A stretch of 61,963 nt of DNA, the filler included, from Dugesia japonica (Eukaryota), in the NCBI GenBank assembly GCA_001938525.1. It is 6 parts of 6 records of this genome, joined end to end, with 100 filler letters (N's around TTAATTAATTAA, not from the genome) between each part and the next. Parts side by side here need not be neighbours in the genome. Positions count along the whole stretch, not along the records: positions 19,785 to 32,149 come from MQRL01607966.1; 5 more parts are not named here. One strand, given 5' to 3'. The notes beneath the pieces are model-generated. The model saw only the letters and a list, made by a program, of their open reading frames with translations, did not search any database and was not told where the DNA came from. Position numbers and translations under genes: made by a program. Position 1 is the first letter of the stretch, and each line of letters begins with the position of its first letter. Shown one piece after another: positions 16,700 to 50,885 of this stretch.

Positions 16700-17770
16700 C
16701 AACTTATTTAAAATCCATTAAAAGTATTGAAAATTTATTAAAGTTTTTGCAAGCAAATGGATATAATAAACAGTTTTTAAGTTAATTGACTTCGCAGACA
16801 ATTGAAAAAATTTTTGTTGGTAATAATATTGATTTTGATAAAAAGACTGAAAATGTGTTGAATAATTTGAACCTGATAACACTTTGTCCAACTGTATTGG
16901 GCCATTTGTTTTATCGATTCCTTATTCTGAAGGTTTTAAAAAGTTTAAGAATTCGATTTTTAAAGCTGCTATGGATCTTCATTCTTTGAAAATTGTTTCT
17001 ACTTCTCATAAGATTGTTGATAGCTTTGTTATTAAATTTCATACAACAATTGGTTTGTGTTCTAACCTTGTTTATCCATTTTAATGTAATGGGTACAATG
17101 CCACATACATTGGAGTGACTGTCCCTTATCTCTGTATAAGGGTTCAAGAACATAATCGTTTTGGTGGAAGTAGAAATATTGCTGAGCATAAAAATAAAAA
17201 TAAAAGTAATTGTAATGCAAATGTTGAAATTTCAAATTTTAAAATTTTATCTATTTAAGAATTACTGGGAGAGAGTGTTGTATGAGATATTTGTGATTAG
17301 ATTTCATAATCCAAGCATTAATGTACAAACAGCTCGTTCGACTAAATTGATTAAAAATTTTTAAATTTTTTAGACAAAAAAGTTTTCAATTTTTGAGATT
17401 TTAATATATTTTCATGTTTTTATAGGTTTTGTATTTAATTTTAAAATAATATAAAATTAAAAATTTCACATATTTTTGAAAAACGTATTGTATTTATAGG
17501 TTTAAATAGTAATTTTAATAAAATATTATTATAGAAAAAAATTTTATTAGATTATGAATTAATTTTACATTTAAAAATTTTTGAAAAAATTTTAAAATTA
17601 TGAATTGGCAAAAATTAAGATTTATAGCCGTCTTATATTCAGTATAATTGCATTAACCTTTGTTTGAATAATGTAGACTGAATAAACTCATTTTTCATTT
17701 TTGTCTGATGATGACGGTTGATCCGTCGAAATATATCATAATAAAGTTTTATTTTAAAATATGAAATTAT
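16700..17770 (+). mobile_element. Penelope-like retroelement 3' remnant (GIY-YIG endonuclease plus 3' region)
   Basis: Degenerate NLVYPF*CNGYNATYIG...RVQEH motif; paralogous to 54320-55245; hammerhead motif at the 3' end. Confidence 0.85.
17701..17741 (+). ncRNA. Minimal type-I hammerhead ribozyme motif
   Basis: TTGT-CTGATGA-T-GACGG(ttgat)CCGTC-GAAA-TATA-TC-ATAA: intact core, stem II, palindromic stem III, AUC cleavage triplet and 4-bp stem I. Confidence 0.8.
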
Positions 17771-20382: not shown

Positions 20383-21254
20383 AATATATATATAATAGTA
20401 CAAATAATTAAAATATTTGAATAAATTATGCAACATTTTACTAATGCATTCATACCTCACTATACGGCTTTGCGCTTTAACGTCCTATTTGAATTATGGC
20501 AAGTTTTTCGATTTACGACCCAAAATTTTTCGTTATTTGCGCAGGANAAAACAATGTACATATTTTACTGTTTTGTCGCTTTAGTATTAAAATAATTGTT
20601 TCGTTATATGACTATTTGCTTTGACACGTATCTAGAACGTAAAGAGAGGTATGAGTGCACCTAATTATTTTCTTTGAAATATTACATGGTTNNNNNNNNN
20701 NNNNNNNNNNNNNNNNNNNNNNNNNNNNNNNNNNNNNNNNNNNNNNNNNNNNNNNNNNNNNNNNNNNNNNNNNNNNNNNNNNNNNNNNNNNNNNNNNNNN
20801 NNNNNNNNNNNNNNNNNNNNNNNNNNNNNNNNNNNNNNNNNAAGCGCTTTATTAATCTGAATTTATCAATAAAAATATGAACAGCCAAATAAGTCTTTCT
20901 CAATCTTTAACTTTGCAAAAGAATATTTTTCAATAATTGTAGGTCGACCATAAATAGAATATGTAATGTTTAAACTTTAGTAGATTGAAATTATCACAAA
21001 ATAAACAATATAGTTTAGAAAAGTGCTTACTATAATAATGTAAAGCAATTTAAATACATGGTTTGCTTAGTACAATGATTAAGTAGCAAAAATTAAATTT
21101 TGAAGTTTTTATATGCAGAACATTCCTAAAAATTTGTCTTTGTAAATTAATCATGATAGATGTTATTTTGAATCATAAAAAACCTGATAAAATTTAGAAA
21201 AATTTGAAGAACTTCATAAAACAGATAAAAATATGAGTTAAATTAAATAATTTT

Positions 21255-21425
21255 ACAATTGCAATTATTGCGAGAATAATTATTGGACATAACATTGATC
21301 GTTTTTCAGAATTCATTAAAATAAAAGCTTCGATCGAAATTTGTTTTTTACTGTTTTTGATAATAATTTTGAATTATTATAAAAAACAAAAAAAACTAAT
21401 TTTGATCGAAGCTTTTATTATAAAT
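21255..21425. repeat. Back-to-back copies of an abundant short interspersed repeat (GATCGAAGCTTTTATTTTAATGAA...ATTATTCTCGCAATAATTG)
   Basis: Same family at about 22630-22825, 23491-23545, 32262-32575, 41775-41850, 43206-43290, 46480-46510 and 60780-60795. Confidence 0.8.
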
Positions 21426-23170
21426 TTATTTAAAAATAACTTGAAACTGTTTTTAATTTCTAAAAAATTATCCATTGATACATGGAACTAAATTTTTAAA
21501 GATAAATAAACGAAATCTTCCATAAATACAATTTTTAATTTGTATTCCAAAAAGTGATATTCATTGAGGTGGAATTTTTTAATGTTTAACTATGAAAGAG
21601 TGAAAAACTTATCTAATTAGTTGCAAATGAAGTAAATGGTTAAGTAAAGATGTAAACGATTACAAATATAAGAAAACTAATTTTAATTACAATACTTTTG
21701 GCATAGGAATTTATAAAAATTCAAAACCATTTTAAAACAATTTATAAAACTGTTATAAATTATAACAATTAAGTATTTCAAAATTATGGTAAATATAACA
21801 GTTTAGTGCATTATTAACAATGATTGAATTATTATTCCAATGACACAATATAATTGAAAAATAATAAAATATATCAACAGCTTATCGGATCAATGATTTA
21901 TAAATTTCTTAGTAACAATCAAACAATTAAGTTGTGTAATTATTTTAGATGTAAAGTTTTATTAATTACAATCTTAAAAATAAAAGATTTTATCAGAATG
22001 TTAAACAACTTACACTAAAAATACCAACCTCAGAGTCGTGTACTTTATTAATTACACTGCCCGGAGTTTTTTAACTTTAAATTTTATTCCAGATGAAAGG
22101 TATCTACCATATATATTTCGTTTGAGCGGATTCCAAATATAATATCAGTTTTTCTGTATCACGTCTTATTTTGGAGAAAATTCACTTTTTGAAAAACAGG
22201 AAATTTACATAAAAAGCACCTATAAATTTAAGCTGACACGTAACTTCGATACCAAAACTAAGTCAACTGATTTTTTATTTTAAAGTACTATCAAATTTTG
22301 AGCAGCCAGTAAAAATCCGCCATCATGCGCTCACCAGCACGGCTCTGGTATCGCTTTTCGATGGTACTTATCGTCTGGTGAAATATTTCACCATGTTCGT
22401 CATTAATTTTCCCAAAATCTTTAGGGAAAAAGCTCAGGTGGCACTTCAAGTAGTGTTAATAATTATTAAAGACTATCGAAAAATCTTTACAACTTTAATT
22501 ATTACTGGAATAGTTGTTGTACTCAATCATTGATCACATTTTATTAACGTTAAAATAAATTAAAAATTGTAAATCAAAAAGATTTTTCACTAATTTCTTG
22601 TTAGATATACAAAAAATTTACACTTTTCAGGTTTCATTAAAATAAAAGCTGCCATNAAATTATTTTGGTTTTTCATAGTATTTCGAATTTTCTACTTTGT
22701 CTTCGTCGAAAATTCGAAATATTATCAAAAACAAAAATAATATTGATGAAGCTTTTATTTTACTGAAATCTCAAAAACGATCAATGATTACATTTAACAA
22801 TTATTCTCGCAATAATTGTAAAACTACACTTTTTAATTTATTAAAAATAAAAAAATCATTCAAAAAGCATAAATATATATTTGACTAATAAGGAAAATCC
22901 AAAAATAATATTATTACAATTTTTGATATCAATAAATTTTTATTTAACCATTTTCTGTCTTATTATTACTTATTTATTTTCATATTAACCTTAAAAGAAT
23001 CTTTGAGACGTATCTAAATGCCTGTTATTACTTCATAGAATTTTCTATATATTGTAAAAAATACTTTTCCGTGATTAACAAAACTAGTTTCGAATAACAA
23101 CTGACTACTTTATTAATTAAATATAACCAGATAGCCAAGGGTTAATGAAAAAACAAAGTGTTCTCATTAG

Positions 23171-23793
23171 CAGGGCCGTCTTAAGAAATTCTGCGTTCGT
23201 AGGCTACTAAAACTAATGCGCCCCTCTTCGTGAGAAAATTCACAGAATAGCAAACGAGAGCGAAGTGTCCGGCAANNNNNNNNNNNNNNNNNNNNNNNNN
23301 NNNNNNNNNNNNNNNNNNNNNNNNNNNNNNNNNNNNNNNNNNNNNNNNNNNNNNNNNNNNNNNNNNNNNNNNNNNNNNNNNNNNNNNNNNNNNNNNNNNN
23401 NNNNNNNNNNNNNNNNNNNNNNNNNNNNNNNNNNNNNNNNNNNNNNNNNNNNNNNNNNNNNNNNNNNNNNNNNNNNNNNNNNNNNNNNNNATAAAACGAT
23501 CAATGGTTATGTCCAACAATTATTCTCGCAATAATTGCAATTGTCTATCGAAGTTTATGGCATCGTTTGTCATTCCAGCACATTAGAATATAGAAACCAG
23601 TTAAATATTTTAAGAAATTGTTTTAATTTAAAAATACGTGAAAACTAATAATATGAAAAATGAATTTTTATAAAACTAATAACTAAATGACTAATAATAA
23701 CAAAAAATATAAATCGCAAATAAAAATTGCCGCCCAAAAAGGCTTGCACCCTGGGGCTATAGTCCAGTTTGCCCTGTGGTTAGGGCGGCTCTG
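23171..23793. mobile_element. hAT-like non-autonomous element
   Basis: TIRs CAGGGCCGTCTTAA and (rc) CAGAGCCGCCCTAA; 8-bp TSD ctcattag/ctcattaa. Confidence 0.75.
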
Positions 23794-24862: not shown

Positions 24863-24974
24863 TTTTAAAACTTTAATGACGCACTTCTCATTAGTCACCA
24901 CATTAACGCCTTCAAAAACTTCACTATATTTACCTCGACCAAGTTTTTTAACTATTTGATAATCATCCTGATTT
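24863..24974 (-). CDS. CSNK2A1: Casein kinase II alpha, coding exon 2
   Basis: 112-nt exon, (R)[37 protein letters not shown], with acceptor attcag and donor GTAATT. Contains the GRGKYS glycine-rich loop and the VIK lysine. Confidence 0.95.
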
Positions 24975-25017
24975 CTGAATTANAATTTAACGAGTTTTCT
25001 TCATAAATACGACAAAC

Positions 25018-25112
25018 CTCCACTCTACTTGATATGCCTCATAATCCCAATACTCTCTTGGTCGATTAACATTAACGTCAGCATAAATTCTAGATTTGCT
25101 TGTTACCGGCAT
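25018..25112 (-). CDS. CSNK2A1: Casein kinase II alpha, coding exon 1
   Basis: [31 protein letters not shown], followed by a 43-nt GT..AG intron (24975-25017). Later exons were not found in this contig. Confidence 0.95.
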
Positions 25113-26340
25113 TAATAGAGTACTGATTAAACGAAATAAACCAAATTTATTTGTCAATGTCCGTAAATTTAATCTTTGAATAGTAAATAGCAAAAAAATA
25201 AAATGTTTAAAACAGTCTGAAATTTAAGCTATACAATTATTACACTTTCGTATTGATTAATACGATCCAAGAAAACGAAAGAAAAATTTATCATTTTAAA
25301 TATAACGAGTTATTTAAAATAACTTAAACAATTTGATACATATAAACATGGAAGAAATTAAAAATTAAAAAAATCAAAAAAAACTTGAAGGTTATTGCGA
25401 ATAAAGATAAATTATTTCCTTTAAAAACTAAGTAATTTAAAGTTCATTCTTCATTTAACTAAAATTTTGCTATTAATAAAAAAAACTATGTAAAAAAGCT
25501 TTTGTATGAGCTTTAATTCTGATTGCTAAATAATCGTATCTGTCAGTATCAATTCATGAATTTCAAATATCTGAGATTTTTTATTTTCATTTATAATATT
25601 AAAATTGGTTTTTTGAAACTTTTAAAATATAAAACAGGTTTTTTAATGTTGGGTATTTCTACTCAACAAGTAATTTATGGTTCGATTATTTTATAACTAC
25701 TGATAGATAATATGTTTGTGAATTTACGGGTGTTGATTTTTCCCTTTATATGTTCGTACAGTATTATATAAACAATATCTTAATAAAATTTATAAATAAA
25801 GTTATATCGTGTATGCTTCCTATATAAATAACTAATAAATACCTTGAATAATTTATTTTTGATGTATAAGAAATACAAATGCAACCTTAAACCTTATTGG
25901 CAGTATTTTAGAAATAAGCTAGAGATGCCTTACCAGAGAGGTCGGATTCTAGCTGAATCAAAAGTTACTGGAAAATAGCTAAAACTGATCAGTATTTATA
26001 TTGATTTTACATACGTAGGCTATACACACATCAATGAATTGATCAAAATATAATTGTTACTAATAGATATTTTTTATAATAAAATAATCAATATTTACAG
26101 ACCATTAAATAAAATTAATTGTTCAAAATAAAATAGAATTATTATTCACATAAGTATTCAAGAAATAACACAGACAAAGTGAAAACAGAATCACATATTA
26201 TTGACTTTCAAGTTTATCGATCGGATCTTGAATTGGGTTGCATCGAATGTTGAAACAGAATTGATGTCCATTTGAATCTATCAGGTGTTGATTCGAATCT
26301 CATGTCAAGATTGATGTTTATGTCATTGTTTTTGTTGTGT

Positions 26341-27403
26341 TTATTTTGTCTGCATGCTGTGTTGTATTATGTAGATCTCAGATCTCAACAAATGTACCCC
26401 CTTACTAAAAGATGCTCCGTCATCTTTACGGGAATAGAAATCGTGGGCAGGCCATGTCGTGTTATGCTGATAATACTTCATCCATATAGGTTCATTGAAT
26501 ATACAAGCGGGGAATTCATATTCGGGGTTGATACTCGAAGGAGAGGTGGAAGGGTCTCTTGAAAAAATGTTTCTTGGGTTATGCAATCTGGAATATCTTC
26601 TGGTGCGGATCGGAGGAATTCATCTGTCTGCTTATAGTTCAGAAACATTCGTGGATATTTGGCTGTCTGGTAGACCTGTGAACAGTTTCGTATTTCGATG
26701 TTATGGACTAGCAGATTATATCTTTCTCCATTTCTGGTGGCCTCTGTGAATTCTTGGTTAAATTCTAACTTATTTAGGATTTTAATCGTATCAGAGAAAT
26801 GAGATTGTTCCCTTTTAATAACTGAATTAATCTGCTTTTCTGTTTATTAGGAAGGGGTCCATAGCTGATGGTACGGATATCGTCATTGATTTGTTTAACG
26901 GAAATGGAGTCGCGCTGTGTGCATATAGTGAGGAATTCACTAGTGGGATCGCTTTTATCTGGAGTGTCAATTTGGTACATGAAAGGTGTTAAATGAGCAA
27001 ACCTAAGGTTATTATTATGAGGCATTTTTATTAACAAGGTGAGAGGTATAAATTGTCCAATTGTTGGGACTTGTTGATGACAAATTTCGGCACGTACATA
27101 ATTTTGCTGGTGAATTTTGTAAGTCCTACATGAGGGACAAGGGACGATTCTTGATGCTGTGACGTCGAAGTATTGTGTATTGCAGGAAAAACTAAAGTAG
27201 TGCCCACATTGAGCTATTCTTGGCATTATAGGTTTATCATAACATAAAGGGCATATAGGGTTATGATCAACAATCAAGGAGACAAGAGCAATATCGCGCC
27301 AGCTATAGTCAAATGGATTTTTTATGTTTCTGTGTTTCTCATATAATACAATACGGGCATTATTTTGCAGGAATTTCCTTCTGGACTGAATTGTTAGCTC
27401 CAT
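26341..27403 (-). pseudogene. RNF10/Mag2-like RING E3 ubiquitin ligase (retroelement cargo, frameshifted)
   Basis: FLQNN..YSWRDI..CPLC-x11-CGHYFSFSC-x14-CPSC..IGQFIPLTLL parallels RNF10 FLQAN..VNWDFV..CPIC..CGHIFCWAC..CPIC..VGDTITMQLM. After a frameshift near 26800, VYQTAKYPRMFL..DIPDCI parallels the RNF10 FYQAEDGQHMFL..SPEKI block. Confidence 0.75.
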
Positions 27404-27502
27404 ATTCTTAAAGTATATATATTAAATCACATACTCATAACATAACGACGTTAATACTAATAATTTATATATACATATATGTGTATGTGTAATCAGCCTA
27501 GA

Positions 27503-29067
27503 TTATTTTAGTCGATCGATGGACACATTTAATAGATTGTTATCTGTTTTATCTATGGCTAATGTGAGTAGTGCGCCATCTTGTGTCATTGCAACTTTGT
27601 TAAATAGCGTGTTTTCTACTATGAATTTCAACTTCTTGTTGCCATTTTCTTCTATCTTTGTTAAATGGATTCTCTTTTTTCCATACCTTAGGTAAATATC
27701 AGCATTTGGTGTCGTGTGAAATCTAAATTCTCCTCTCTTCTTGTTTCTTTTATTTGATGTTTCTTCCCAACTAACTTCTGGTTCAGTTAAATATATACCC
27801 GGTTCTGGTCCTATTGAATCGTCACTCTCACTATATGGTACATATACACCATCTTCTCTAACTTGGTCTACCGTAAGATCCTTCAATTGTTCGTCGTCGT
27901 TATCAGATTCTGTAAGATCTATACTGCATCTTTGTTCTACCACCCCTTCCATTTCTCCGTCTCCCATATCAGACCAATATTCAGTACTGCTGTTTAGCTC
28001 TCCTTCATCAAAATCACAACTTTCCTCATAGTAGTGAATTGGAACTTTTTTCGACTTCTCGATTACCCACTGTTCATCCTTTTGACCTTGGATCGCAAAC
28101 TGTCTTTCTTCTTCATCCCTTTGTCGTATCACTTCTTCATCTTCAGATTTGGGATCGTATCCAATATTGCCATTTATTTCCCTTTCGTCTAACTTGATAT
28201 CGTCTGAGTCTAATTTGACTTTTATATCTATGTCTTCCTCGGATTCCGAATCCATTATCCATCGAATACTTATTGGCTTAACCACTTCCCTAATTGCAAT
28301 TTCCTGTATAGTGTCCTGATCTCCTTCATCTATTGATATATTACTGGTTAGTATCGGTTGCAAGGAATCTTCCCATTCCTGTTGGCTAGACATCTGTTTG
28401 TAAGTTATCCTGATTAGCGTCGTTTTTTTTGCTGTTGATTCATACTTCGTATTTCTAGCTGTATTCAACACATCCTTTATAATATATTCGTGTCTTAATG
28501 ACTTAAATACTGCTTCCATTAAATTAAGGAATTTAAGCTTCTTGACATTTGGAGTGTATTGTCGTCTCCATTTTTCCTCTGCGAGATCTCTAATGCCAAT
28601 TACGTATGAAGGCTTATCAAATTTTTCCCAATATTATATCCTACTAGTATTTTTCCATAAATTAGTTGCCTTGCTTTCAATATCAATGGGTAAGCATCTT
28701 TGTATTGTCGAATTTTTTCCTGATCACATCCTGTGATATGATAGTCAAAATGTCTAATTTTTTCTCTTGGACTGAGAGTTTCAACCATTAAAATAGTTCC
28801 ACTGCTTGACATAATAGTTATCTCTACTAACTGTGGGTTAGAATACACATCTTTTACTGTTCTCATATCAATACATACCGTAAGTTGATAAATATCTTCT
28901 GCCATCAATATTGCATATTTTATAAATGACGTATAGTTAAGTAGATCTATATAGGAAACAGTGCAGTGTCCCCTAATGCTCGTGAAAGATGGAAAAGGTA
29001 TAGGTATCCGATCATGGTATATGATTTCTACTGCTAAAACCGCTGGATATTTTGTATGGCTATCCTA
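27503..29067 (-). pseudogene. DEDDh (REXO4/ISG20-like) exonuclease-fold protein with acidic tail (cargo, frameshifted)
   Basis: The frame is open from about 29064. VCIDMRTV..LSPREKIRHFDYHITG..LIYGKILVGYNI..(frameshift near 28605)..IRDLA..DVLNTAR runs into the 338-aa acidic ORF. Confidence 0.7.
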
Positions 29068-29128
29068 ATATTATTTATATTTTTATTTATTATCTCTTCA
29101 ATTATTAGTGAGGTGTTGTTAACTACAG

Positions 29129-29686
29129 TTATTTCATTTTTGTTATGCGTGAATTTGATAGGGTTTTTGTAACATGCATTCGAATGGCTTTAATAATTCT
29201 TTTCCCTTTTTTCAATGCATTTTCAGGGTTCTTGGGGATCTTTATATACCCTATTAATTGTTGAAGAGTGTATCGCTTTGCTTCCTGAAATCGTATCATG
29301 ATTAAATCCTTATCAAAGGTGTTATTTTTTAATGCATTAGGGATTTTTGCCACCTCATTAAATGTTTCTATTCTGGACTCGGTTTGTTTCTCTTTAAATG
29401 TAAAGTTNNNAATGGTATCATAAAATTGTGGGATACTTTTTGTGGTAAAGGTAGAAGATGAAGGCATATTTGTTGTGTCACTCTCTGTATGTATGTTTGT
29501 GTCTGTTTGATTATTAATTTTTTGTTTGTTGTTACTTTTGCTTTTATTATTTTGTCTTGCTATATTTTCTTGTGTCTGCATGTTATGTCGTATAATTGAT
29601 TGATTGTTATGTATGAATATTTTTGTTTGTACTTTGTATTGTATTAACTGTTGACTGACTGCTGCAAATGCGGATTGTTCGAGCAT
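29129..29686 (-). CDS. Orphan accessory ORF (185 aa, N/T-rich linker, basic C-terminus)
   Basis: ATG at 29686 (MLEQSAF...); AATAAA about 40 nt after the stop; co-oriented with pol. Confidence 0.45.
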   Translation of the reverse strand: MLEQSAFAAVSQQLIQYKVQTKIFIHNNQSIIRHNMQTQENIARQNNKSKSNNKQKINNQTDTNIHTESDTTNMPSSSTFTTKSIPQFYDTIXNFTFKEKQTESRIETFNEVAKIPNALKNNTFDKDLIMIRFQEAKRYTLQQLIGYIKIPKNPENALKKGKRIIKAIRMHVTKTLSNSRITKMK

Positions 29687-29759
29687 TTCTTCTAAAACAA
29701 ATGAATAATTAATGATTGAATTTAAGGACTGGTTAGTCCTATATACTGCTACAGGTATT

Positions 29760-30702
29760 AGTAGCTTATTATATAAATGAAAATATATATAAATAATAAT
29801 ATGAAACATTACAATTATCATTTTGAAATTTACCGCGAGGTGTTCAGACCAATGTCCATAGGACAAAATTTTGGAATATGCGGGGTATTGCGCGCCAATA
29901 ACGCTGCCTCTTCTACCTGTATCGCTTATGTATTTGTATTAATGTAGTTATGAAAGCGAGGAGGATTCTCAATCATTCTCAATATTGAGAAAGGATGATG
30001 TAATATTTTTATGTGAAATGTTTTTACTGTTGTGGTGGTAATCCATAATTGTAGGATTTTATGTCGCAATTGTTGATGATCGAACTTGATGTTATTATTC
30101 AAAGTTTTTCTATTTCTTTTCGAATTTTTGTTTATACTCATATTTGTTGTCATTTTCACTGTGTAGGTATTATGATGAATAGTTGTTTCTATTTGTGGTT
30201 TGGTTGTACTCGACCTTTCTTGTCTTGTAAGAATAGTCACAGATCTCGTCTTTATTTGTGATTTGGTTGTACTCGACGTTTCCTGTTTTTTTGAAGGATT
30301 CATTAACTGTCTTTGTGGTATAATCAGTTTCTTTGGTAATGTGGTAAATATATACTGTCTCAATAATTTGACTCTGCTCATTCTATACTGTATTCAAATT
30401 CTATATGCTGTGTCAGCTTCTAGTCCTTTTATCTCTATCTGGCCTATCCCTTTGCTCAATTTTATTGATATTGCTGTAAAAACATATCTCTTCTTCGTGG
30501 TGTATTCATTTACTCTGACATATTCGTTTACTTGCTCTTTTATTGTTGCAGCGATTGTTATATTATTCGGTGCCTTCAGTACGATACTATTGGGATATTT
30601 TATCCTTTCTATAATACCAAATCCTTCTTCTTTCTCCAGTTTAGCTGCACCTACTGTTAATAATGTCACTAAAGTTAGTGCAAAGAGTGGTAATGCATTT
30701 TG
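29760..30702 (-). pseudogene. Env-position ORF: signal peptide, FN3-like domain, Thr/Ser-rich stalk and hydrophobic tail
   Basis: In frame with KYNLRSE*: NALPLFALTLVTLLTVGAA, then PNSIVLK...IEIKGLEADTAYRI*I...FTTLP (FN3-like), a 21-aa S/T repeat, and terminal CFILLFIYIFIYIISY. Contains in-frame stops. Confidence 0.55.
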
Positions 30703-32149
30703 TCATTCTGATCGAAGGTTATATTTGTGTTGTTTTTCAGGTTCAATTTCTGNNNNNNNNNNNNNNNNNNNNNNNNNNNNNNNNNNNNNNNNNNNNNNNN
30801 NNNNNNNNNNNNNNNNNNNNNNNNNNNNNNNNNNNNNNNNNNNNNNNNNNNNNNNNNNNNNNNNNNNNNNNNNNNNNNNNNNNNNNNNNNNNNNNNNNNN
30901 NNNNNNNNNNNNNNNNNNNNNNNNNNNNNNNNNNNNNNNNNNNNNNNNNNNNNNNNNNNNNNNNNNNGTTTGAATTTTACTTTTAGATTGGCTTGTTTAT
31001 ATACCTCTTGTAGTCTTTCTTGCATTTTTGTAACGTAATCTAAATTATCCATATATTGTGACACAATTGGCTCAAATGTTATATCTATCGGCATATGATT
31101 TTGTCTGAGGTACACAAGATAAAATGGGGAATATCCCGTGGCTTCGTTCTCAGTTGTATTATGTATGAACAATGTTGACTTAATAAATAGATCCCAATCA
31201 TTTTGATGCTTATTTACGAAAAATGCCAATCTTTTACATAATGTACTGTTAAATCTTTCAACTAACCCATCAGTTTGTGGGTTATGAGCCGTCGTATTTA
31301 TTTTTTTAATATCAAACATATTTGTTACTCGTTGTATGACTTCATTGAGGAAACTCTTTCCCCTATCTGATAGCAGCTTTCTTGGCGCTCTATATTTGTA
31401 TATTATCTTTTCAACTAATAACTTTGCTACTGTATCTGCTGTTTCATCTTTTGAAGGAAATGCCTCTGCCCACTTTGTAAAATAGTCATTTATTGAATGA
31501 ATGAATAAATGAATAAATAGTCATTTATTCATTCATTGAATACTAATATATGTTTGTTGCCTTTTATAGTTGTTGGTAATTTGCACAAAAAATCAATTGC
31601 ACATGTTTCCATTGGTGAGCTAGGTATTGGCATTGGCTGTAATGGGACTTTGGTTTTTGTTCTTGTATTCTTTCTTGTGGCACAGATACTACATGCTTGA
31701 CACCACTTCTTTACATCCTCTTTGATATTAATCCCAATAGTATTTTTGTAGTAATCTTGACGTGGTTTTTCTACTAAACAGGTGCCCTCCGAGCGCTCCA
31801 TCATGATATTGCAATAGTAATAATTGTTTTAGAGAATCTGGTACAACCATCAGATTTTACCCTAAATTATTGTACATAAGTAAATTCTTATACATTTTAT
31901 ATTTAGTATTCTTTTCTTGAATCATCATCTTTTTAATTTCTTGTATTTGTTTATCTTTAGTTTGTTCCTCCAGAAATGTTTTTGGGTTTTTTCCCGCCAT
32001 AACGATTGACATCATTTCTAATATATTTATTTCTGGAATTCTTGGTAATGCATCCGCATTTTTATTTGCTCTACCTAGCTTGTATATAATACGTATGCTC
32101 ATATCTTGAATTTTCATTGCCCACTTCAGTATTCTACTGGATGCATCTT
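30703..32149 (-). pseudogene. Gypsy pol C-terminus (end of RNase H, integrase Zn finger and DD35E core)
   Basis: RILKWAMKIQD..NKNADAL, CQACSICA, CAIDF, LLSDRG, NPQTDGLVERFN, TGYSPFYLVY, and KYNLRS after an N gap. Confidence 0.93.
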
Positions 32150-32249
32150 NNNNNNNNNNNNNNNNNNNNNNNNNNNNNNNNNNNNNNNNNNNNTTAATTA
32201 ATTAANNNNNNNNNNNNNNNNNNNNNNNNNNNNNNNNNNNNNNNNNNNN
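32150..32249. other. Artificial contig-joining spacer
   Basis: TTAATTAATTAA at 32194-32205 between two 44-N runs. Confidence 0.97.
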
Positions 32250-33289
32250 TATATTTAAAAGAAGTTTGATCGAAGCAATTATGAATTAAAAAAGTGCCCT
32301 TCTGTTTGTCTAAAACAGTGATCATCAAATTTTATATACAAAAAAAAATTGCGGAACCTTAATTAACTTTATAAAATATAATACAATTTTGAATAATATA
32401 ATTTATGTTAAAAATATGACCCTCAAAACATACATTAAAAGTTTGAGATTTCATTAAAATAAAGAAGAAGCTTCGATCAAAATATTTTTATCGAAACTTT
32501 TTCTTTATTTTAATGAAATCTCAAATGCGATCAATGGGTAAGTTCAAAAATTATTCTCACAATAATTGTAATTATATTAAAAGTTTGATCCTAAAATAAT
32601 AATAAATTAAAAGTACACTAAAAATACATTTTTAAAATTTTAATGTGTATAATTTGTGTTAAAAAAATGGCCCTAAAATACATATTCAAAAAATGACCCT
32701 AAAAACACATGTTCAAATTCTAGCCCTGGGGTCATTTTTTAAATAAGATCCAGAAGAACTCTCTAGGAGGACAACAAATTTTGGATTACGAGTCGATAGC
32801 CCTCATATTTTTCTAGATTGACTTTGTAAACTGATTCTAAATTTGTTCCGAAGTCATGGCGTTTTTATATCGATAAGATGGACTTCTTTGATTTCAACTT
32901 GAAGATCGACACGGAGTTGAGTGTTAGCCTATCTAGATACTCTGCATATATAGTGTTGTTGCAATAAGATTTAGAGTTTAATTTACTTGAATATTATTGT
33001 TGACCTATTTAGTTTTTTTTATTATTACTTTTTGGAATTATTGTTCGAGCCCCGGAAATTTGTTATTTAAGTTGAATATACTTTACGTGAGTATTTTTCT
33101 AATTTTAATTCCGTTTGCTATATTTGTTTCGTATTGTAATTTTGACAATTAAAGCTAAACATTTTGAATATAATATTAGCTATTTTCTCTTATAATTAAG
33201 AATTCAATTAAACTTAAATTATTCATTAATATTATTTTAACTATTCCTCAACATAATAGTCATTATTTAAACTTATTATTTTAAATATG

Positions 33290-34350
33290 ACCCATGTTCC
33301 GTTATCCTATAACATGGAGAAGTTTCGAAGATACTTTATCCTGAGAAATGGCGTTGGCACATTTTTCGGCTCTGTGAATATGGAAACAGATCAGTTCTTG
33401 TTTTTTGTGTTATCTATTTCTGAATCAATTTGGATATATATCGCCATTTTGTTTGTGTGAGGAAACGAATGTTGATTTTGCATTAGTTATACAGATGTGC
33501 TCAATTTTTTTTACATATTTTTTCTTATTTTGTTCAAGCATTTTTGATAGCATAAAACATTCGGTTATACAACAAATTCATTTTCCTGAAAAACGTCTTC
33601 GATTGAAGCATGACAAGGCGCATTATCAGTTACTAATAAAAGTTTTGATTGACACATATTTTTAGAATTCCAAAGGCAATGGTGTACAAATTCTTTGGCT
33701 TCAAGATTCTTAAAAGATCTATTTCTAATTTTGTGATAATCCAAACTAATATTACGCATACATCCACTAACATGAATATTTGCTCCTTTACAGCCAGGAG
33801 AAATATGTATACTATAACTTCCTATTTTTAGATCAACCCTTTCTTCTTGATATAAATAAATTGAAGTTGGCCTTATCCAGGTAATAAGGATATTTTCTGC
33901 TTGGTATTCTTAAAGTGGTTTAGCACAATTACGTCTTTTAGTTTTATTTTCCTCAGTGTTTGCTTTTTAAGATTCCCTGTGAATAGCTTTTAATGTAAAC
34001 AACATTTAATTTAAGTGTTTCCGTAAACATTCGATAGAAACGTCAATTTGGTGATTTTCATGAAATGTTTGCTTTTAAAAAGCAGTATGTTGAAGAATAA
34101 CTTTGAAAGAATAAAAGCAAAAATTTTTTGAAAATCACTAAATTGAAGTTATGTTAAATTGCAAAATTCCTTCGACCACATTGTTTTTCGTTTTCTTGTT
34201 TTCTGATTCATCGATAATTGGTGGATCTTTTCACTCCTAAAGTATTTGCAAGTGATCTATAATCTCCAGTGTTATTATATAATTCATAAAAGTTGTTTTT
34301 AATATTGTCAGCTTTTGCTTTTGCAATGTACATCATTTTTCATATACAAG
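33290..34350 (-). mobile_element. Decayed pogo/Tigger-like transposase
   Basis: KLLLVTDNAPCH motif within a fragmented DDE-like coding stretch. Confidence 0.55.
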
Positions 34351-34899
34351 GATGTCTTGTATTTATAGTTTAAGAATATACTGTTAAAAGTTTAATAAGT
34401 TTTTTAAACGTATCTATTAAATAAATGTGTGTATCTGTGTGTATTATATTTTCTAACCTTTTTCTATNNNNNNNNNNNNNNNNNNNNNNNNNNNNNNNNN
34501 NNNATGCTTGTAAATCTATTTTAATTATATTATAGGCAGCTAATCAGAATACAATAAATTATTATAAGGTTAGTATTTTTACCTTATTAAACTTTAAACA
34601 GTATAAAATTAATAATATAATATTTAATTGATTTTTTAAAACCATATTATTTGAAAATATAAGAAATCTAACAGTTTTGCAATGCATCAGATATATCGCT
34701 CATATACAATTGCGTTAAATCAGACGGATGTACGATTTTAATGGTATTTCTTTGCTATGAGATGTTTTCTAACTCATTCTCATTCTGTGCATTTGATAAA
34801 AATTATTGAATATTTCATTTTTATTTTATATTTAAATGTTTAGTTGTCAATTTTCAACTTCAAATTCACAATGTAAAGTGGAGAAGTTATAGATATGAA

Positions 34900-35567
34900 A
34901 TATTCGGTATCAGACAATTGCTGATTGAGATGCTGTTGTTTATAATGAAAAGCGATATTTGGTAACAACATTTGGAAGGATTGAACGTCAATCCACTCCA
35001 TGAAGCTCAATATGAAGCTGACTCCACCATTGTTTGAAGAACCTCGTGATTTTCAGCAAGTAATGCAATGTCATCAGCATATGGTAGTATAGAGACACGA
35101 GAATGACTACTCTGAATTCCAGCATGTATGATTACGTTGCATTGTTCAAGAAGAGGGTTTAAACCATTATTGAAAATAAGAATTGAGATAGAACAGATTT
35201 GTCTGACCTTTTTAGAAATCAGAATGAAGGACGTTGAAGTGAATTGGAAAATATTTGTAGAAGAACATTGGTGTTATATTGATTGAATAAGTTTCGTAGT
35301 GTGACTGTCCATATCCATTCGACTGAGTATGCTCGTGATATGGGAAACAGAAATAGAATCCTAGGGATCAGAGATGTCAAGGTAGGCCAGATGAACCTCA
35401 TTTACCGGATTTCTCTTTGAGTTTTCAAAGAGTGCTCTGAAGATGTTATTGTGTTCTATGCATTCTTCAGATTAGATGATGGAGGATCCAAAATAAGCAG
35501 TCCTCTTGGTCGGATTGAGATAGGTGAGATTTCCCATGAAACTACTGTATAAGATATGGGTCGACTA
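34900..35567 (-). mobile_element. Non-LTR retrotransposon reverse transcriptase fragment
   Basis: RPIS..ECIEH..LAYLDISD..KVRQICSISILIFN..PYADDIALLA..SGLTFNPSKC. Confidence 0.88.
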
Positions 35568-36652
35568 GCGGCGTGGAGTTGCTGTAATTCCTTAATTGCT
35601 GAGAGCAGCTCGATCAACTGTTGTTGTTTTTGCTTTATTTCAATTTCCCGGTCGTTACACATGTTTCTTAACATGATGATTTCCTTCTCTAGTGCAGCTT
35701 TATACGGTTCATTGTACTCTAATGATAATTTATCGATTCCGGCTTGCAACCGTTCTCGGTTGGCCAAGCTGGTTAATAATTGATTTTCTAACCGTTTTTT
35801 TTCGAACTGCGAATTAAATAACTCCATTCGTAGAATTTGGGTATTTTCCTGTTTAATTGACACTTGGGTTTCTAATTCCCTTTTCTTTGGTTCGATCTGC
35901 TCGAATTTATTTTTCCAATCGCGAGCCTGTTTTATCGCATTTGTTTTGGCTCGATTTTCATCCAGGTTCCTATTTATTAACTTTTAATGTGCATTGCAGG
36001 ATCGTTTTTTAATTTCAAGTTCTTGTCGAATTTTCTCTACCTGATTTTCCAGTTCGTTATTATAGTTTTGTAATTCTAGGTTTAAGAGGGCATTTATTTT
36101 CGAATCCAATTTCCATTTTAAGACTTCGGGTACAGATGTGAGAGATTGGTTCTGAATTTGGAAGATAATTTTAGATAGTCTGTCTGTTTCAAATTTGAAT
36201 GCCATTTCTATTCTATTTTTTGACATGTTCCATTCCAGTCTGCATGACGTTTCCAGTATGTCTTTTTATTTTAATTATTTTGGTTGATTATTTACATCTA
36301 AGTTCAATAGGAAAGGGCAAGTGAGAAACAATATTTTATGATCCCTTTCTGGGTTATCATTCGTTCTCCATTTATGCAGATTTCTTTGTCAGTAGATACA
36401 TTTCACTCGGTCTGGATGATCTAGAGTTTCAAAGAAATAGAATTATTTTATAGAATAGAATTTTCAGTTCATGGCGGTTGACCTCTCCCTTAATGGGGGG
36501 TACACACCCACAAACCTTGGTATTCGGGTTCAATGCTTTTCCCTTATCTTATATAAATTTATTAGAGCTGATACTACTAGGAACATTTACTACTAAAACA
36601 TTTATAAGTTGCTTAAAACACTCGGAACGAGCCATTGCTCCGGATCGTCCAT
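35568..36652 (-). pseudogene. BIR (IAP repeat) domain plus long coiled-coil protein
   Basis: FYFFETLDHPDRVKCIY*QRNLHKWRTNDNPERDHKILFLTCPFL has exact C-x2-C-x16-H-x6-C spacing (36400-36317, second Cys is TGA). It is in frame with ORFs 36226-35984 and 35863-35456. The start at 36652 is tentative. Confidence 0.8.
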
Positions 36653-36682
36653 TGTAAAGTTAAACGCTGCATAATCATCCTC

Positions 36683-36985
36683 CTAGTTCCACTGAATCCA
36701 AGTTGGGTTACCGATCTGACGGGAAAGATCTGCTATATACTGCTTTAAAAAATCGATCTTCCTCATCAGCAGCTGTTTGTTTTCGTCCTCTAGCGCCTTA
36801 GTTTGGACCGCTAAATCGTTTTGTTTTTTAACGATTAAGTCCAACTTTTTAATAAGTTTGTCACGCTGGCCAAGATGTTTTAAGAGAGCCCTATCTACTT
36901 TGCGCTTCAGATGGCGTTCCAACAACAAGCGGCGCAGGATCCGGTGGCACCTTCGCAAGCTTGTGAGAAAAAAAATGCGTGGCAC
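36683..36985 (-). CDS. Small basic coiled-coil ORF
   Basis: 100-aa open frame with heptad-like L/K/E pattern. No 5' ATG; preceded by a splice-acceptor-like ctctttatttAG. Confidence 0.4.
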   Translation of the reverse strand: MPRIFFLTSLRRCHRILRRLLLERHLKRKVDRALLKHLGQRDKLIKKLDLIVKKQNDLAVQTKALEDENKQLLMRKIDFLKQYIADLSRQIGNPTWIQWN

Positions 36986-37101
36986 TAAATAAAGAGTATA
37001 ATTAAGTCGGCTAAAACCAGTGTTAAAAACAGAGAAGCAAATTAGAGTTGATACAATTAAAACACTTTATTAAAGACAGTCGAAATCATAAACGCGGTGG
37101 T

Positions 37102-37479
37102 TCATGAGCGGTTGGTCTGGGTACCTTTATCTACCAGGAGTGGGGGTAAAGGCATGGCCGTCTTCAACTTCAGGATATTCTCTATTAGCTGATTTTCACG
37201 CTCTTGGTAGGACTTGATGAATTCAGTGAGGGTTTCGACTTGCGCTTTCCATACCCTTTCCTGTTTCTGGGTTGCTTCCATCTCAGATTTGAAAGTCAAG
37301 CACTTCCGTTTATATCGTTTGACTTTAGCCTCGGCGGTCGCGGTTTCTACTTCCCACCGCCGTTTCGCGAGCCTGTATAAATCCCACATAAGCTCAATGT
37401 CTTCGTTGGATTCGCTTAATTTCTTATTTGGCGTTTGGGATCTGTTCAAGGAAGAATGCACTGAAATTACAAACACCAT
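37102..37479 (-). CDS. Small coiled-coil ORF
   Basis: 125-aa open frame with an ATG start and AATAAA about 30 nt downstream of the stop. Confidence 0.45.
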   Translation of the reverse strand: MVFVISVHSSLNRSQTPNKKLSESNEDIELMWDLYRLAKRRWEVETATAEAKVKRYKRKCLTFKSEMEATQKQERVWKAQVETLTEFIKSYQERENQLIENILKLKTAMPLPPLLVDKGTQTNRS

Positions 37480-37591
37480 GAATAAAGTCCGAATCTTAAC
37501 TTATGGATAATTTAGTAAAAGAAGATAGGCGGGCTACTTGATAAAAGAAAAATGAAGAGTTGGTTAACAACGTTTATTCTACGTAACAACA

Positions 37592-38020
37592 TTACAGGGA
37601 AACCTCTGTTATTTCTTCCTCGGTGTTTTCATTGTTGCTATTAGAAGCCTCATTTCGTGCACTCCAAAGGTAGTTTTGAACAAANGAGGATAATTGAGAA
37701 GTGGAAGGTAATCGATTCGTGGTAACACCGATTAAGGAAGGTCCATCATGCCACAGACGCTCTACCTGAGGCACAACGGTATTTCTCTCAAAAGAAAGTG
37801 CAGCTGGAGGAAATGCAACCCAATCTCGTCTAGGGCCACACCAACTGTAATAGGCACTCCTTTCCGTCGCATCCCACTGTCTTTCATCTGCTGCGTGTTC
37901 GGTGGAGATGTTGGAGCGATCGACTAGAACACCGGCGTCACGATTGTGCGGGTTTTGGTACCTTTTAAATACCGTTCGGCCTGAATGAATATCCAGACTC
38001 ACCTCCCACTTGAATTCCAT
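37592..38020 (-). CDS. Orphan ORF (142 aa, MEFKWEV...)
   Basis: TATAAAA at 38094-38100, ATG at 38020, AATAAA at 37573-37578. Confidence 0.5.
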   Translation of the reverse strand: MEFKWEVSLDIHSGRTVFKRYQNPHNRDAGVLVDRSNISTEHAADERQWDATERSAYYSWCGPRRDWVAFPPAALSFERNTVVPQVERLWHDGPSLIGVTTNRLPSTSQLSXFVQNYLWSARNEASNSNNENTEEEITEVSL

Positions 38021-38919
38021 AATGCCGGTTCTAAAGTGACGACTAGTGAGGCTATATCTATTGACCAAATGGTATGAATAGACCTGATGAGTGTTTTATA
38101 ATCAAAATGAGTTCTAAAATTTATTTTATAAGATTAGTATTTAAATTAACACCAAAGAAACAAATATATTTTTTGGATGACATGAATACACAAATGGTTC
38201 AGAGGGATTTATTATTCCTCATCTATATCCACTTTACATTCGAGAGGGAACATCTCAACGAATCACTGGAGATCGGTTTCGTCGGGGTGTTCCACTTTGC
38301 CCTTCGTTAAATAGTGGGCTATTAATTGTTTCAGGCGAACGATTCGAAGCTGTTTCTTTATTTGACGGAGTGTGGCTCACAGTATTGCTGGCATTATCTA
38401 GGAAAGAAAAGAAAAAATCTAAAATTATCACACAAAATCATGGTGTGGATTTCAATTTCCTCTACAAGAAGATTTTTATGTTACTGCGGTACACTATTAA
38501 CGAGATGGTTTGGTCCCGTAACAAGGCATTAATCCATTAAATTTATCGCAAATTAAAGATGCGCCATGTATTATTCGATAACATCCCCTTCTTCATAATA
38601 AGGATTTTTAGGGCTGAGCACATCATTCTTTGGCATTTCTTATCCTAATAATCAGATAATAGGAAAAAATTATAATATTGGCGAAGATTTTACTCATCAT
38701 AATGATGGCATTAATAATACCTGGTCACTAACAGGATTCATAAATTACACTAACATGAAAAAGTGATGATCATCTAATTATATGATGGTGACTATTCCAG
38801 GTGAATGATTTTATTAGTAATAACCATTGATAATACCAGCCAAAACAATAATGATGGTATCGATTTTAATACTATTTATGATGAGGATGGTACTAATAAT
38901 CATAATCCATAGAATACTT

Positions 38920-39030
38920 CCATCATAATATTAATAATAATAATCATGATAATAATATTGATAATAATCATATTGATAATAATATTAATAATAATAATAA
39001 CAATAATAATATTAATAATAATAATATTGA
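38920..39030. repeat. (AAT)n low-complexity block
   Basis: Direct AAT triplet run. Confidence 0.9.
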
Positions 39031-40530: not shown

Positions 40531-43500
40531 ATCACATTTTTCCGTGATTGCAAAAAATTTGTCTTGATGCATGAAGGCTTAGTTCATATTTTTGATTGTA
40601 AAACATCTAATAGTGGGTTCATGCAAACGAAAAGCTTTTGTTTGAATAACTAAACTTCTTAGAGGGACACCTTATTGATGTTCATCACCAATGCCTGATA
40701 ATAACGATCTTTCCATCTAATCAATCACTATATCATGTCTTTTGAATACAGATTTCCATAATTTTGAACATAGTTTTTGATTTTAATCTTTTTTAACATC
40801 GGACATATCGTNNNNNNNNNNNNNNNNNNNNNNNNNNNNNNNNNNNNNNNNNNNNNNNNNNNNNNNNNACTCCTAATTATTTCCGTATTTGTTTCTATTG
40901 TAAGAAGTTTGTGGATTATTAATCTCTTCTTTCCGATATCAACACTATTGCATCTTCGTTTCTAATTCATGTTTATGGATTTATAAAAATGAATTATTTA
41001 TTACATAAACTGACAAGAACACAGCGTGTCATTACAATACTGCCCTGATCTGAGACTAAACATGACTTCGTAATTAAGTGATCGGAGGCAGAAGAAAGAG
41101 ACTCGATTGCACAAAAGAATTTATGAAATGTACGAAACTCGAGGTACACTTGTACTATGAAAGCATGTATGACATTAACAATTTTGTTCTTATTTTTAAC
41201 CTATATCTTATTAATATCTATTGCATTATTGTTGAAAATTACATTACTGATAATAATGTTAGAAGCATCAAAGAATTATAGTTGTCATTGTTATTAACTA
41301 AAAATAATTGAAACAAATCGAAATACGTATTTTCTTCTTTTCAAAAATAAGGAAATTTTAAATTTGATATTAGTTTTTTTATGTTAAAATTATTATTAAG
41401 GAAAGATTTTTTTGAATATAAAACTGACATAATATAATTATTTTTGAATACTGTAAAAATAGATTAATAGAAAAAAAGTACATAATGATCAAAGAAGTGA
41501 AATTCTTCGAATTAAGATAATTTCAAAATAAGATACAACGAACTAAAATTTGGAAACACAATTGATAACTTAATTAAATTATCACAATAAATAATAAATA
41601 TAAGAATAATTAATNNNNNNNNNNNNNNNNNNNNNNNNNNNNNNNNNNNNNNNNNNNNNNTAAATTAGCAATTAGTTAAATAAGAAAATATTAAAAGCGA
41701 CAAATTATTTTTTAAAATTTATTGATTGAAGATGAATTTAATTGCAAAAAATATTTACCAATAAAAATTATTTTACAATTGCAATTATTGCGAGAATAAT
41801 CGTTTTTCGGAATTCATTTAAAATAAAAGCTTAGATCATAATTTGTTTTTTTTTNNNNNNNNNNNNNNNNNNNNNNNNNNNNNNNNNNNNNNNNNNNNNN
41901 NNNNNNNNNNNNNNNNNNNNNNNNNNNNNNNNNNNNNNNNNNNNNNNNNNNNNNNNNNNNNNNNNNNNNNNNNNNNNNNNNNNNNNNNNNNNNNNNNNNN
42001 NNNNTAAATAAATTTTTATAGATATTAAAAATTAGGTTATTTTTAATAATCAAATAGAAAAAATATTATTCATTAACTATGCTACATTGTTAAATTAAAA
42101 TAAAAATATATTTCGTCTTTTTTATTTGTTTAAATAGAAATTTTAGTTCAGTCTAGCCAATTTTAGTTAATATTTTAATGTAAGCAAGGTGTAAATCAGT
42201 TGTCCGGATACGTATAATCCTTACTGTTATGGAAAGGAAAGAGAATGAATATAAATTAAATGACAATGAGATGTTGATTATTTCTACTAATGAAATATGG
42301 CAAATTTTAAAATGAATCCTAATATTATTATAATTGAAACGAAAAATATACAAAAAAATATTTTTTGCTTAAGTAACTGAAGTTTTTTTTTAAATGAAAA
42401 TTAATCTAAATTTATGATTATCAAAATATTTCACGAGTGAACATTCTGAGAATGGTAGTTTTATAGTTATTTTTTCTTGATTATTGTTAATGTTTTCTTC
42501 TGGTTTATTATTGGATGTTGAGCACAGTTTTATTTAGAGTACTATGTATATTATTATAAATCCTTTTTTAGTTATATCTAATAGCTCGAAGACTACTATT
42601 TAATCTGCTAAGACCATCATCCGCAATCTCAAAACTTGATGATATATACCACACTCTATGTACTAAACCTTTTATTAATCTATTTTAAAATCGATCATCA
42701 CAAAAATGTTTAGGAGTGGTAGACAGTCCTGTGTCTGTTGGTTTTTTATATATTGTAATATTATAGTTATGACCTTATCTACAAACAAAAACATCTAAAA
42801 ATGATAGTTTACCCTCTTTTTCAACTTCTATAATAAATTTTATATTTTGATGAAGACTGTTCATATAATCAACAAAATGTAATATATCATGTTGATCTTT
42901 AAAATTAAGGAAGATATCATATAAATATAAATGTAAATATATATTTTCTACATTTCTACACTACATAGAAAAAAACATGAAGAAATACTAATCAAAGAAA
43001 GCAATCCTAAAATAAATANNNNNNNNNNNNNNNNNNNNNNNNNNNNNNNNNNNNNNNNNNNNNNNNNNNNNNNNNNNNNNNNNNNNNNNNNNNNNNNNNN
43101 NNNNNNNNNNNNNNNNNNNNNNNNNNNNNNNNNNNNNNNNNNNNNNNNNNNNNNNNNNNNNNNNNNNNNNNNNNNNNNNNNNNNNNNNNNNNNNNNNNNN
43201 NNNNNTTGATCTAAGCTTTTATATTAAATGAATTCTATAAAACGATCAATGGTTAAGTCCAGCAATTATTCTCGCAATAGTAATTATAATGGTATTGTTT
43301 TAGTAATATATATAGCTTAAAAATATTTTCGTTTAATACAACTGTTTAGTCTTAGAAATTATGAATTTTCTACAATATGTATTAATTTCAGTATATTTAA
43401 ACATTTTATAATTATTATATTTAAAAGTAAAATTCAAATATTAAAAGTATTTCAAAATTTAGGCCTTCCACTCCAATACACGATTTGTTAGCAAATAAAT

Positions 43501-50413: not shown

Positions 50414-50751
50414 CAATGAAAGTTTTGTGGACTAAAATGTACTTTTTCTGGAATCAAATAATAATTTTTGTATGAAAGTTTTATGGTGTAAGGTGATGCG
50501 CTTTGTTTGCCAAGAAATCTGGAATAATACTATAAGTTTTAGATCATGTGAACTCGCATGAAAGAAGTAAATTAAACAAATTTAAATGGAAGTCGATGAC
50601 ATTATCCATTCTGGATTTTGCATGTATAGTATGTGAACGAAAACTCGTTAATTGCATTATTACATATGTATGTATGTCTATGTATGTATGTTTATGTCTC
50701 AAAAATATAATTAAAAAAACCGCGTAACTCTGAAATCGCACAAAAAAGGTT

Positions 50752-50885
50752 TAAGTGTAATTTCTTGAATCTTTGTTTAAATAATATAGACTGAATAAAC
50801 TCATTTTTTCAATTTTGTCTGAAAATGGCGGTTGATCCGTCGAAATATATAACAATAAAATTTTATTTTAAATGGTGTTATATAT
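50752..50885 (+). repeat. Isolated 3' end of the Penelope-like family with degenerate hammerhead
   Basis: Near-identical to about 17640-17760 and 55110-55245; core mutated to CTGAAAA. Confidence 0.8.

Follow-up and report, generated by a model that had tools for sequence, protein, structure and literature searches.

A putative Pol-extended FN3-fold membrane cassette in a Ty3/Gypsy retroelement clade with a decayed member in Dugesia japonica

Closest described systems

Errantiviruses and other env-carrying Ty3/Gypsy elements contain a Ty3/Gypsy pol followed by a glycoprotein with a signal, an ectodomain and a transmembrane (TM) segment. The available text of a recent errantivirus survey reports only F-type and gB-type Env, which were found with F and gB baits, and the word "fibronectin" does not occur in its available main text (PMC13524379). 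Single Gag-Pol-Env open reading frames (ORFs) are known from Atlas (PMC9094657) and Burro (PMC6431247). As described in the accessible portions of these papers, Atlas and related nematode belpaoviruses carry a single Pol-to-glycoprotein ORF with release by a host protease, and Atlas is a BEL/Pao element whose phlebovirus-like GN-GC glycoprotein is a class II fusogen. The giant Burro Gypsy elements of planarians encode a multi-domain polyprotein (an ORF of 4,873 aa) that contains an in-frame F-type env before the protease as well as captured ankyrin and RING-type domains; "fibronectin" has no occurrence in the available Burro text (PMC6431247). The bdelloid elements Juno and Vesta carry non-env ORFs after pol, one separate ORF3 per element, encoding DEDD-family (DEDDy) exonucleases and small TM proteins (PMC5408684, available text). 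In SIRE1, a plant Copia element, a single stop codon lies between pol and an env-like ORF, and read-through of this codon was reportedly tested (cited in PMC2829016). The signal-FN3-stalk-TM layout and the FN3 fold are also found in animal type I receptors such as Dscam, RPTPs and cytokine receptors. No report of an FN3 env-like cassette in retroelements was found in the open-licence PMC and bioRxiv literature.

The element described here, from Dugesia japonica, appears to work like an env-position, Atlas-style Pol extension in a Ty3/Gypsy element, and the errantivirus env features tested were absent. Its clade has a small FN3 ectodomain instead of the F or gB protein of errantiviruses (PMC13524379); the cassette is fused to Pol rather than encoded by a separate ORF in all five relatives that have one, and the D. 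japonica copy has neither a furin site nor a Cys-bridged ectodomain. In contrast to Atlas (PMC9094657), its pol is of the Gypsy type and no fusogen was seen. The size of the Burro ORF (PMC6431247) may be set against the range of 323-2000 aa covered by the search for relatives reported below. Where Juno and Vesta have a single ORF3 (PMC5408684), the D. japonica element appears to have several ORFs, including an RNase T (DEDDh)-like exonuclease, a RING protein and the FN3 cassette. SIRE1 (PMC2829016) differs from it in being a Copia element. It differs from animal FN3 receptors in its low identity to them (6-16%), in the absence of a Pfam fn3 match in the cassette and in the location of the cassette inside a retroelement polyprotein. 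Fused Gag-Pol-Env ORFs are already known, and the FN3 ectodomain is a new form of env-like capture.

The window and its setting

The window is the whole stretch of 61,963 nucleotides that was analysed. It is AT-rich (about 20-30% GC outside elements) and derives from a gappy draft, with 37 runs of N. Its parts are joined artificially:

9433, 19685, 32150, 40431 and 50314: 100-nt artificial joins, each with a 12-nt all-frame stop linker that is flanked by 44 N on both sides

The element block (about 26500-32000) is A-rich on the minus strand, with a GC content of 0.30-0.39 versus 0.21-0.25 to its left, and its upstream edge is the artificial 100-nt linker gap at 32150-32249. The window contains one element copy; repeat comparison within the window found no second. 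No long direct repeat or LTR pair was found in the window, the 5' half of the element lying beyond the artificial linker. The contig of the element contains no gag gene, and the reverse transcriptase of the element is absent from the window. A possible polypurine tract and 3' LTR were seen by eye at 25860-26405 (minus strand), where a purine run near 26400 is followed by about 530 nt bounded by TG...CA; no partner for it was found in the window. A 27-nt pair within the block (26347-26373 and 29573-29599, 78% alike) may be due to chance. An Rfam scan of 25000-39000 gave no match, and a tRNA scan found none.

The host genes in the window are of animal type. A Na/Ca exchanger gene is present at 58442-60082 (minus strand) as a single ORF of 546 codons (Pfam Calx-beta, E 1.3e-32), and exons resembling CK2-alpha, with an intron of about 43 nt, were recognized by eye at about 24900-25110 (minus strand). 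Beyond the linker gap from the element, four short consecutive ORFs, partly coiled-coil and some followed by AATAAA, occupy 34950-38100 (minus strand; GC 0.37-0.40), after which comes a decayed non-LTR reverse transcriptase fragment (YADD near 35080). Other repeats include a family at 16887-17758, 54309-55232 and 50751-50892 (79% alike over 937 nt), MITE-like short palindromic repeats (21240-21425, 22624-22840, 23473-23544, 32442-32576 and 43208-43279) and Tc1/mariner-like transposase fragments, found by eye in the ORF list, at 7648-8181 and 48206-48875 (both plus strand).

Integrase and element identity

Two features define the pol end of the element:

30968-32147, minus strand: remnant of a Ty3/Gypsy pol that comprises the RNase H end and an integrase with H2C2 zinc finger and DDE core, from Pfam, PDB and tblastn
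30753-30967, no strand: 215-N gap at the expected site of the integrase C-terminal GPY/F-type domain, from anchor-to-motif spacing

Pfam matches in 30968-32147 are rve (E 1.7e-6) and Integrase_H2C2 (E 6e-4), and the best PDB match of the integrase is Ty3-G Gag-Pol (E 1.2e-10). The order of the RNase H end and integrase in the window agrees with the full PR-RT-RH-IN order in the relatives P0003, P0004 and P0008, and tblastn with the relatives finds the window integrase, split into as many as three pieces, at E 1e-47 to 1e-82. One stop and two frame changes interrupt the integrase, so this copy is dead. The window contains the 3' half of this dead LTR retroelement of the Ty3/Gypsy type (Metaviridae).

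The preliminary description had placed the cassette in frame with the integrase, which holds for the linker after the gap; the core itself is one base out of frame with the linker at the nominal 215 N (134.67 codons). Runs of 215 or 216 N occur three times in the window, so this length is a stock size and the frame across the gap is unreadable from it. Core anchor and linker motif are separated by 134.7 codons in the window (nominal gap), by 138-141 in five relatives and by 155 and 167 in the other two. For this spacing the motif was taken as (R/K)YPLR in P0005, P0006 and P0008 and as ITRA/ITRS at the same place in P0003 and P0004. Since the spacing is like that of the five relatives, the gap has the size of the missing integrase end, which supports the contiguity of pol across it. 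GPY or GPF motifs were seen by eye in the integrase ends of the relatives, at the region that is the N gap in the window.

A clade of relatives with Pol-fused cassettes

The integrase search among proteins of 323-2000 aa gave 405 matches from 819 candidates, of which 120 were listed. In an integrase-core tree of 121 rows, the window and seven relatives (P0003, P0004, P0005, P0006, P0008, P0009 and P0019) form one clade with support of 94/93. The same eight members were recovered with support of 99/96 in a tree of 56 rows, built after removal of 16 rows that were long or outlying and of roughly half of those remaining. Both trees were built without BEL/Pao references. The window is the earliest branch within the clade, and its integrase branch is long (0.79-0.87).

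A long TM-bearing tail after the integrase is present in six of the 120 matches listed, and five of these six fall within the window's clade. Five relatives (P0003, P0004, P0005, P0008 and P0019) share a layout of integrase, linker, internal signal, ectodomain, linker, TM and tail, all in frame with Pol, and four of these five cassette-bearing relatives lie on contigs of 14-22 kb. P0003, P0004, P0005 and P0008 contain two, two, three and one related FN3-like tail domains, respectively, in which Cys pairs and N-glycosylation sequons are kept. P0019 has kept the signal and TM with an unrelated ectodomain (-0.6 bits against the domain profile). The short contigs P0006 and P0009 continue for 90-134 residues past the motif with no signal and no cassette, and none of the seven relatives ends at the linker motif. 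The four FN3-tailed relatives alone are not monophyletic; P0006 nests inside them. An in-frame TM anchor is present in five of the seven relatives (KD19 2.75-3.04), and an RxK/RR site in only one of five.

P0004 carries a second signal-FN3-like-TM cassette at residues of about 45-235, before the protease, so that its enzymes lie between two membrane segments. This upstream cassette was found by a tail-domain profile built without it (19.1 bits; 0 of 3000 shuffles). P0008 has two retropepsin domains before the reverse transcriptase, and P0005 has an extra retropepsin and ankyrin repeats after the integrase, before its three domains. The Pol-linked, apparently non-fusogenic FN3 membrane cassette is thus a trait of the family and not a one-off.

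P0053, named a Dendronephthya protein by its source, was rejected as a member of the clade, outside which it falls in the integrase tree. It is a separate Pol fusion in which a chromodomain-type Gypsy Pol is joined in frame, via an internal signal, to a rhabdovirus-G-like glycoprotein (Pfam E 2.9e-8).

The cassette of the window

The cassette follows the gap on the minus strand:

30703-30752, minus strand: post-integrase linker with the YNLR motif and the junction TGA (30705-30703), from the frame reading and (R/K)YPLR in relatives
30643-30702, minus strand: internal signal-peptide-like stretch without a Met of its own, from hydropathy only
30331-30642, minus strand: FN3-fold domain, broken by an in-frame TGA (30396-30394), from AF2, structure search and a relatives-only profile
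29926-30330, minus strand: low-complexity stalk that contains a tandem duplication of 63 nt and stops at TAA 29928-29926

The minus-strand frame reads EIEPEKQHKYNLRSE, followed by TGA 30705-30703; the next 258 codons, which include the single internal TGA, extend to TAA 29928-29926. A frame of this length was seen in none of 1000 dinucleotide shuffles and in none of 1000 block shuffles with either of two block sizes. Its codons show a coding-like bias, with 75% purine at position 1. The continuous frame from KYNLRSE through the junction TGA into a signal-like stretch, as first described, is present. At the position of YNLR, P0005, P0006 and P0008 have (R/K)YPLR. By hydropathy the signal-like stretch lies at 30693-30652 (KD19 1.85; KD10 2.64, compared with 2.74-3.47 in six signals of the relatives). 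In the window and in these six segments, small residues precede the signal boundary, a putative cleavage site placed by hydropathy.

The S/T-rich repeat described earlier was also found, as a 42-nt pair (30185-30226 and 30248-30289) that is 86% alike and 63 nt apart. The name mucin stalk is a generous one: S+T reach 40% in residues 136-190 and 24% over the whole post-domain stretch, and the relatives' linkers contain 11-24% S+T, which does not support such a stalk as a family trait. The window ectodomain contains no furin-type RxK/RR site and no Cys, as had been proposed for the furin motif, and the idea of an env-position membrane protein without a recognisable fusogen gains support.

The FN3-fold domain

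The domain of the window (104 residues) was modelled with X at the internal stop. A single-sequence model is all-beta (pLDDT 51, best Z 6.3), and AF2 with a 5-row alignment gave the FN3-like beta-sandwich expected of the stop-repaired domain (pLDDT 65, pTM 0.58). With the AF2 model, the best match of a VIA structure search is sDscam FNIII1 (Z 9.8, rmsd 2.2, 82 aligned), and rank 50 still has Z 8.3, compared with 4-5 typical at this rank for models with no clear match according to the structure-search tool. Z reached at least 8 for 71 of 48,161 chains, and the best 50 rows are all FN3 domains or FN3-repeat proteins by title. Among the neighbours are ROS1, Sevenless, IFNAR, IFNGR, gp130, PTPmu and irisin, which we take to be FN3-type. 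All FN3 neighbours lie within about 1.5 Z of each other at 6-16% identity; therefore, no donor or ligand can be named. The best Foldseek match (IFNAR2 D2, E 1.1e-3) is below the threshold of the tool and agrees with FN3. Neither model has a match at E<=0.001 in the viral structure library, and no fusogen is among the matches listed; this search covered the 104-residue domain of the window only.

Sequence evidence for the relationship is more distant. A profile of the relatives only gave the window domain 8.2 bits in a first test (rank 2 of 2244), P0008 being similarly weak (8.0 bits), and 11.8 bits against 0 of 3000 shuffles; in the six-frame translation of the 62 kb, the window domain is the top match (i-E 0.14). 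Identity to the relatives is 16-23%, and pairwise comparison is significant only for P0003 domain 2 (5-8 of 1000 shuffles) and marginal for P0004 domain 2 and P0008. A 5-row domain profile matched four PDB sequences, all FN3-containing chains, at E 0.26-1.2. For the second tail domain of P0004, the ESM Atlas gave fn3 clusters (0.91, 160 shared features), a level that the tool grades as distant or chance.

The FN3 hallmarks are a Leu and a Tyr of the E-F loop (tyrosine corner) and a conserved Trp in strand B. L74 and Y80 are invariant in all five rows, which were picked on the same motif, as domain rows and limits were chosen by the analyst on an FN3-like motif. The window domain has no Trp, so the strand B hallmark is absent, and it lacks the Cys pair of the relatives' domains. 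Pfam fn3 (PF00041) has no match above the curated cut-off in the window or in any relative. The window ORF gave no match in PHROG, among PDB sequences or among 496 candidates of 141-452 aa, and the domain profile returned only its four input proteins from 7641 candidates of 187-2000 aa. P0002, the sole match in 1.84 billion representatives, was rejected as a bacterial-type NHL-repeat protein whose score is summed over repeats. Taken jointly, the assignment of the element to its type and clade, the in-frame cassette of the relatives and the FN3 fold are very probably correct.

The junction stop codon

None of the seven relatives stops at the motif, the window copy contains at least four other lesions, and the 143 nt after the TGA show no unusual RNA structure (z -0.84; 43 of 200 shuffles fold equally well). 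Because of these observations, decay is somewhat favoured as the origin of the junction TGA. Less probable, though a serious contender, is a genuine leaky Pol stop, as reported for SIRE1 (cited in PMC2829016), which few ribosomes would read through to produce the membrane protein. The TGA is placed two residues past YNLR and immediately before the signal, and TAA, not TGA, ends five of the six downstream ORFs. It is followed by C, and a C after a stop codon is a leaky context. A decay stop within the approximately 19 visible junction codons is itself improbable, at an estimated 6-9% from two other in-frame stops in about 650 codons, and within the clade the window branches off first.

A separately started cassette gene is improbable. 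The first in-frame Met of the window cassette is at residue 108 or later, and ATGs at 30706 and 30698 are out of frame. Pol-linked expression with an internal signal, as proposed at the outset, is supported because five of the seven clade relatives are fused in frame and no in-frame Met precedes residue 108. Whether the TGA reflects decay or read-through, the window cassette would be made only as an extension of Pol.

The missing anchor and the ORFs downstream

The following ORFs succeed the cassette:

29129-29938, minus strand: ORF of 269 codons, read in another frame than the stalk with an overlap of 4 codons, which contains the only anchor-like segment (29839-29760)
28600-29064, minus strand: DEDDh (RNase T family) exonuclease-like ORF, from ESM Atlas RNase_T clusters (0.92 and 0.91, with 191 and 168 shared features)
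27503-28633, minus strand: 376-codon ORF with a long acidic region, without a meaningful Pfam or PHROG match
26774-27421, minus strand: intronless RING-HC (C3HC4) ORF (Pfam zf-C3HC4, E 2.1e-6, above cut-off; TRIM31 RING, E 6.3e-5)
26478-26843, minus strand: 121-codon ORF, the last of the A-rich block

The preliminary description had assigned a hydrophobic tail to the cassette frame and had this frame split by two TGAs only. Neither assignment holds, as five further stops (29928, 29832, 29820, 29817 and 29811) intervene before the tail, and no TM-like segment occurs between the domain and TAA 29928 (maximum KD19 0.92). The hydrophobic DNA (29839-29760) is open in the frame of the 269-codon ORF, where T is 0.60 at codon position 2 compared with 0.27 at position 1. 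This ORF has 176 codons before NNN (0 of 1000 block shuffles) and no match in Pfam. The T peak at position 2 and the start of the ORF at the end of the stalk frame therefore suggest a frameshift lesion, with the 269-codon ORF as the frameshifted rest of the cassette; a separate gene is also possible. With a TM profile built from six anchors of the relatives, no frame of 30330-29411 scored above 0 bits. A signal and an anchor are present together in five of the seven relatives, as conservation in homologs would have it, but in the window copy the anchor is out of frame.

The exonuclease-like ORF had no Pfam match and no relevant PDB match, and by eye it seems to continue in another frame into the ORF at 27503-28633. 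Within 26774-29064 (minus strand), inspection by eye suggests that the first motif of the exonuclease and one of the RING ligands are degenerate. From their strand, composition and absence of introns, we infer that the downstream ORFs belong to the element.

Proposed function and alternatives

The best overall explanation, with a probability of roughly 0.55, is a Ty3/Gypsy clade with a Pol-extended type I FN3 cassette that serves an attachment-like function. The Pol polyprotein of the clade would continue into a cassette of internal signal, one to three FN3-fold domains, linker, TM anchor and short cytoplasmic tail. The ribosome would read on from integrase into the cassette, the internal signal would thread the FN3 ectodomain into the ER, and the TM would stop transfer. 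Signal peptidase would free the cassette, which would reach the cell surface or a budding particle, and the signal remaining on Pol would be a transient membrane tether. Internal signals, release by signal peptidase and stop-transfer by TM segments are known behaviours of viral polyproteins. By this analogy, read-on, ER threading, release, delivery to surface or particle and the transient tether are, as a joint account, quite probable. The weakest inferred step, rated a little under even odds, is attachment, in which the FN3 domain would bind a host surface protein so that particles or donor cells attach to targets without fusing membranes itself. No more than one cassette would be made for each Pol, a yield better suited to a protein for targeting or signalling than to a coat of fusogens. 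In the window copy the anchor presumably fell out of frame.

The FN3 protein could instead be a host-manipulation accessory, a receptor decoy or signalling mimic that acts in the host membrane and not in particle attachment. We consider this unlikely but the strongest of the functional alternatives. Cytokine receptors and receptors of the Dscam/RPTP type are among the fold neighbours, although ties within about 1.5 Z at such low identity name no donor or ligand. The RING and exonuclease-like ORFs in the same block, the ankyrin repeats added in P0005 and the few copies expected from 1:1 synthesis with Pol all fit an accessory, whereas the position of the cassette is env-like. Divergence is very fast, which equally fits attachment proteins.

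It is less likely still that the signal and TM mainly tether Pol to membranes for assembly, with FN3 as a stable spacer. The enzymes of P0004, enclosed between the upstream TM and downstream signal, and the unrelated ectodomain between the signal and TM of P0019 would suit a tether. Domains that are duplicated up to three times, with Cys pairs and sequons kept, exceed the needs of a spacer, and two of the seven relatives have no cassette.

That a host FN3 gene decayed beside an unrelated integrase, or that the two were brought together by a scaffolding error, is very improbable, since in spite of the N gap between the parts, the 37 gaps of the assembly and the weak sequence link between the window domain and the relatives, the cassette is intronless, lies on the same strand in the shared A-rich, GC-raised block (about 26500-32000), shows a gap spacing like that of the relatives and has the same architecture as theirs.

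Meaning for retroelement biology

The attachment-like Pol extension may also have a wider meaning, which we put forward tentatively. A lineage of large invertebrate retroelements may have replaced the fusogenic env with a third kind of surface protein, a receptor-like FN3 cassette that can change its place in the Pol polyprotein and is made 1:1 with Pol, in the window's branch perhaps via read-through. Along with RING, exonuclease and ankyrin accessories, the cassette may serve such elements to target host cells or to manipulate them in the style of large DNA viruses. In catalogues, Ty3/Gypsy env-like genes appear as F and gB fusogens, and surveys that use the same F or gB proteins as baits would overlook an FN3 cassette. 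With receptor-type domains built into a retroelement polyprotein, a duplicated and movable FN3 cassette fused to Pol would offer a concrete protein, open to expression, with which to ask how elements that lack a fusogen reach other cells or manipulate them.
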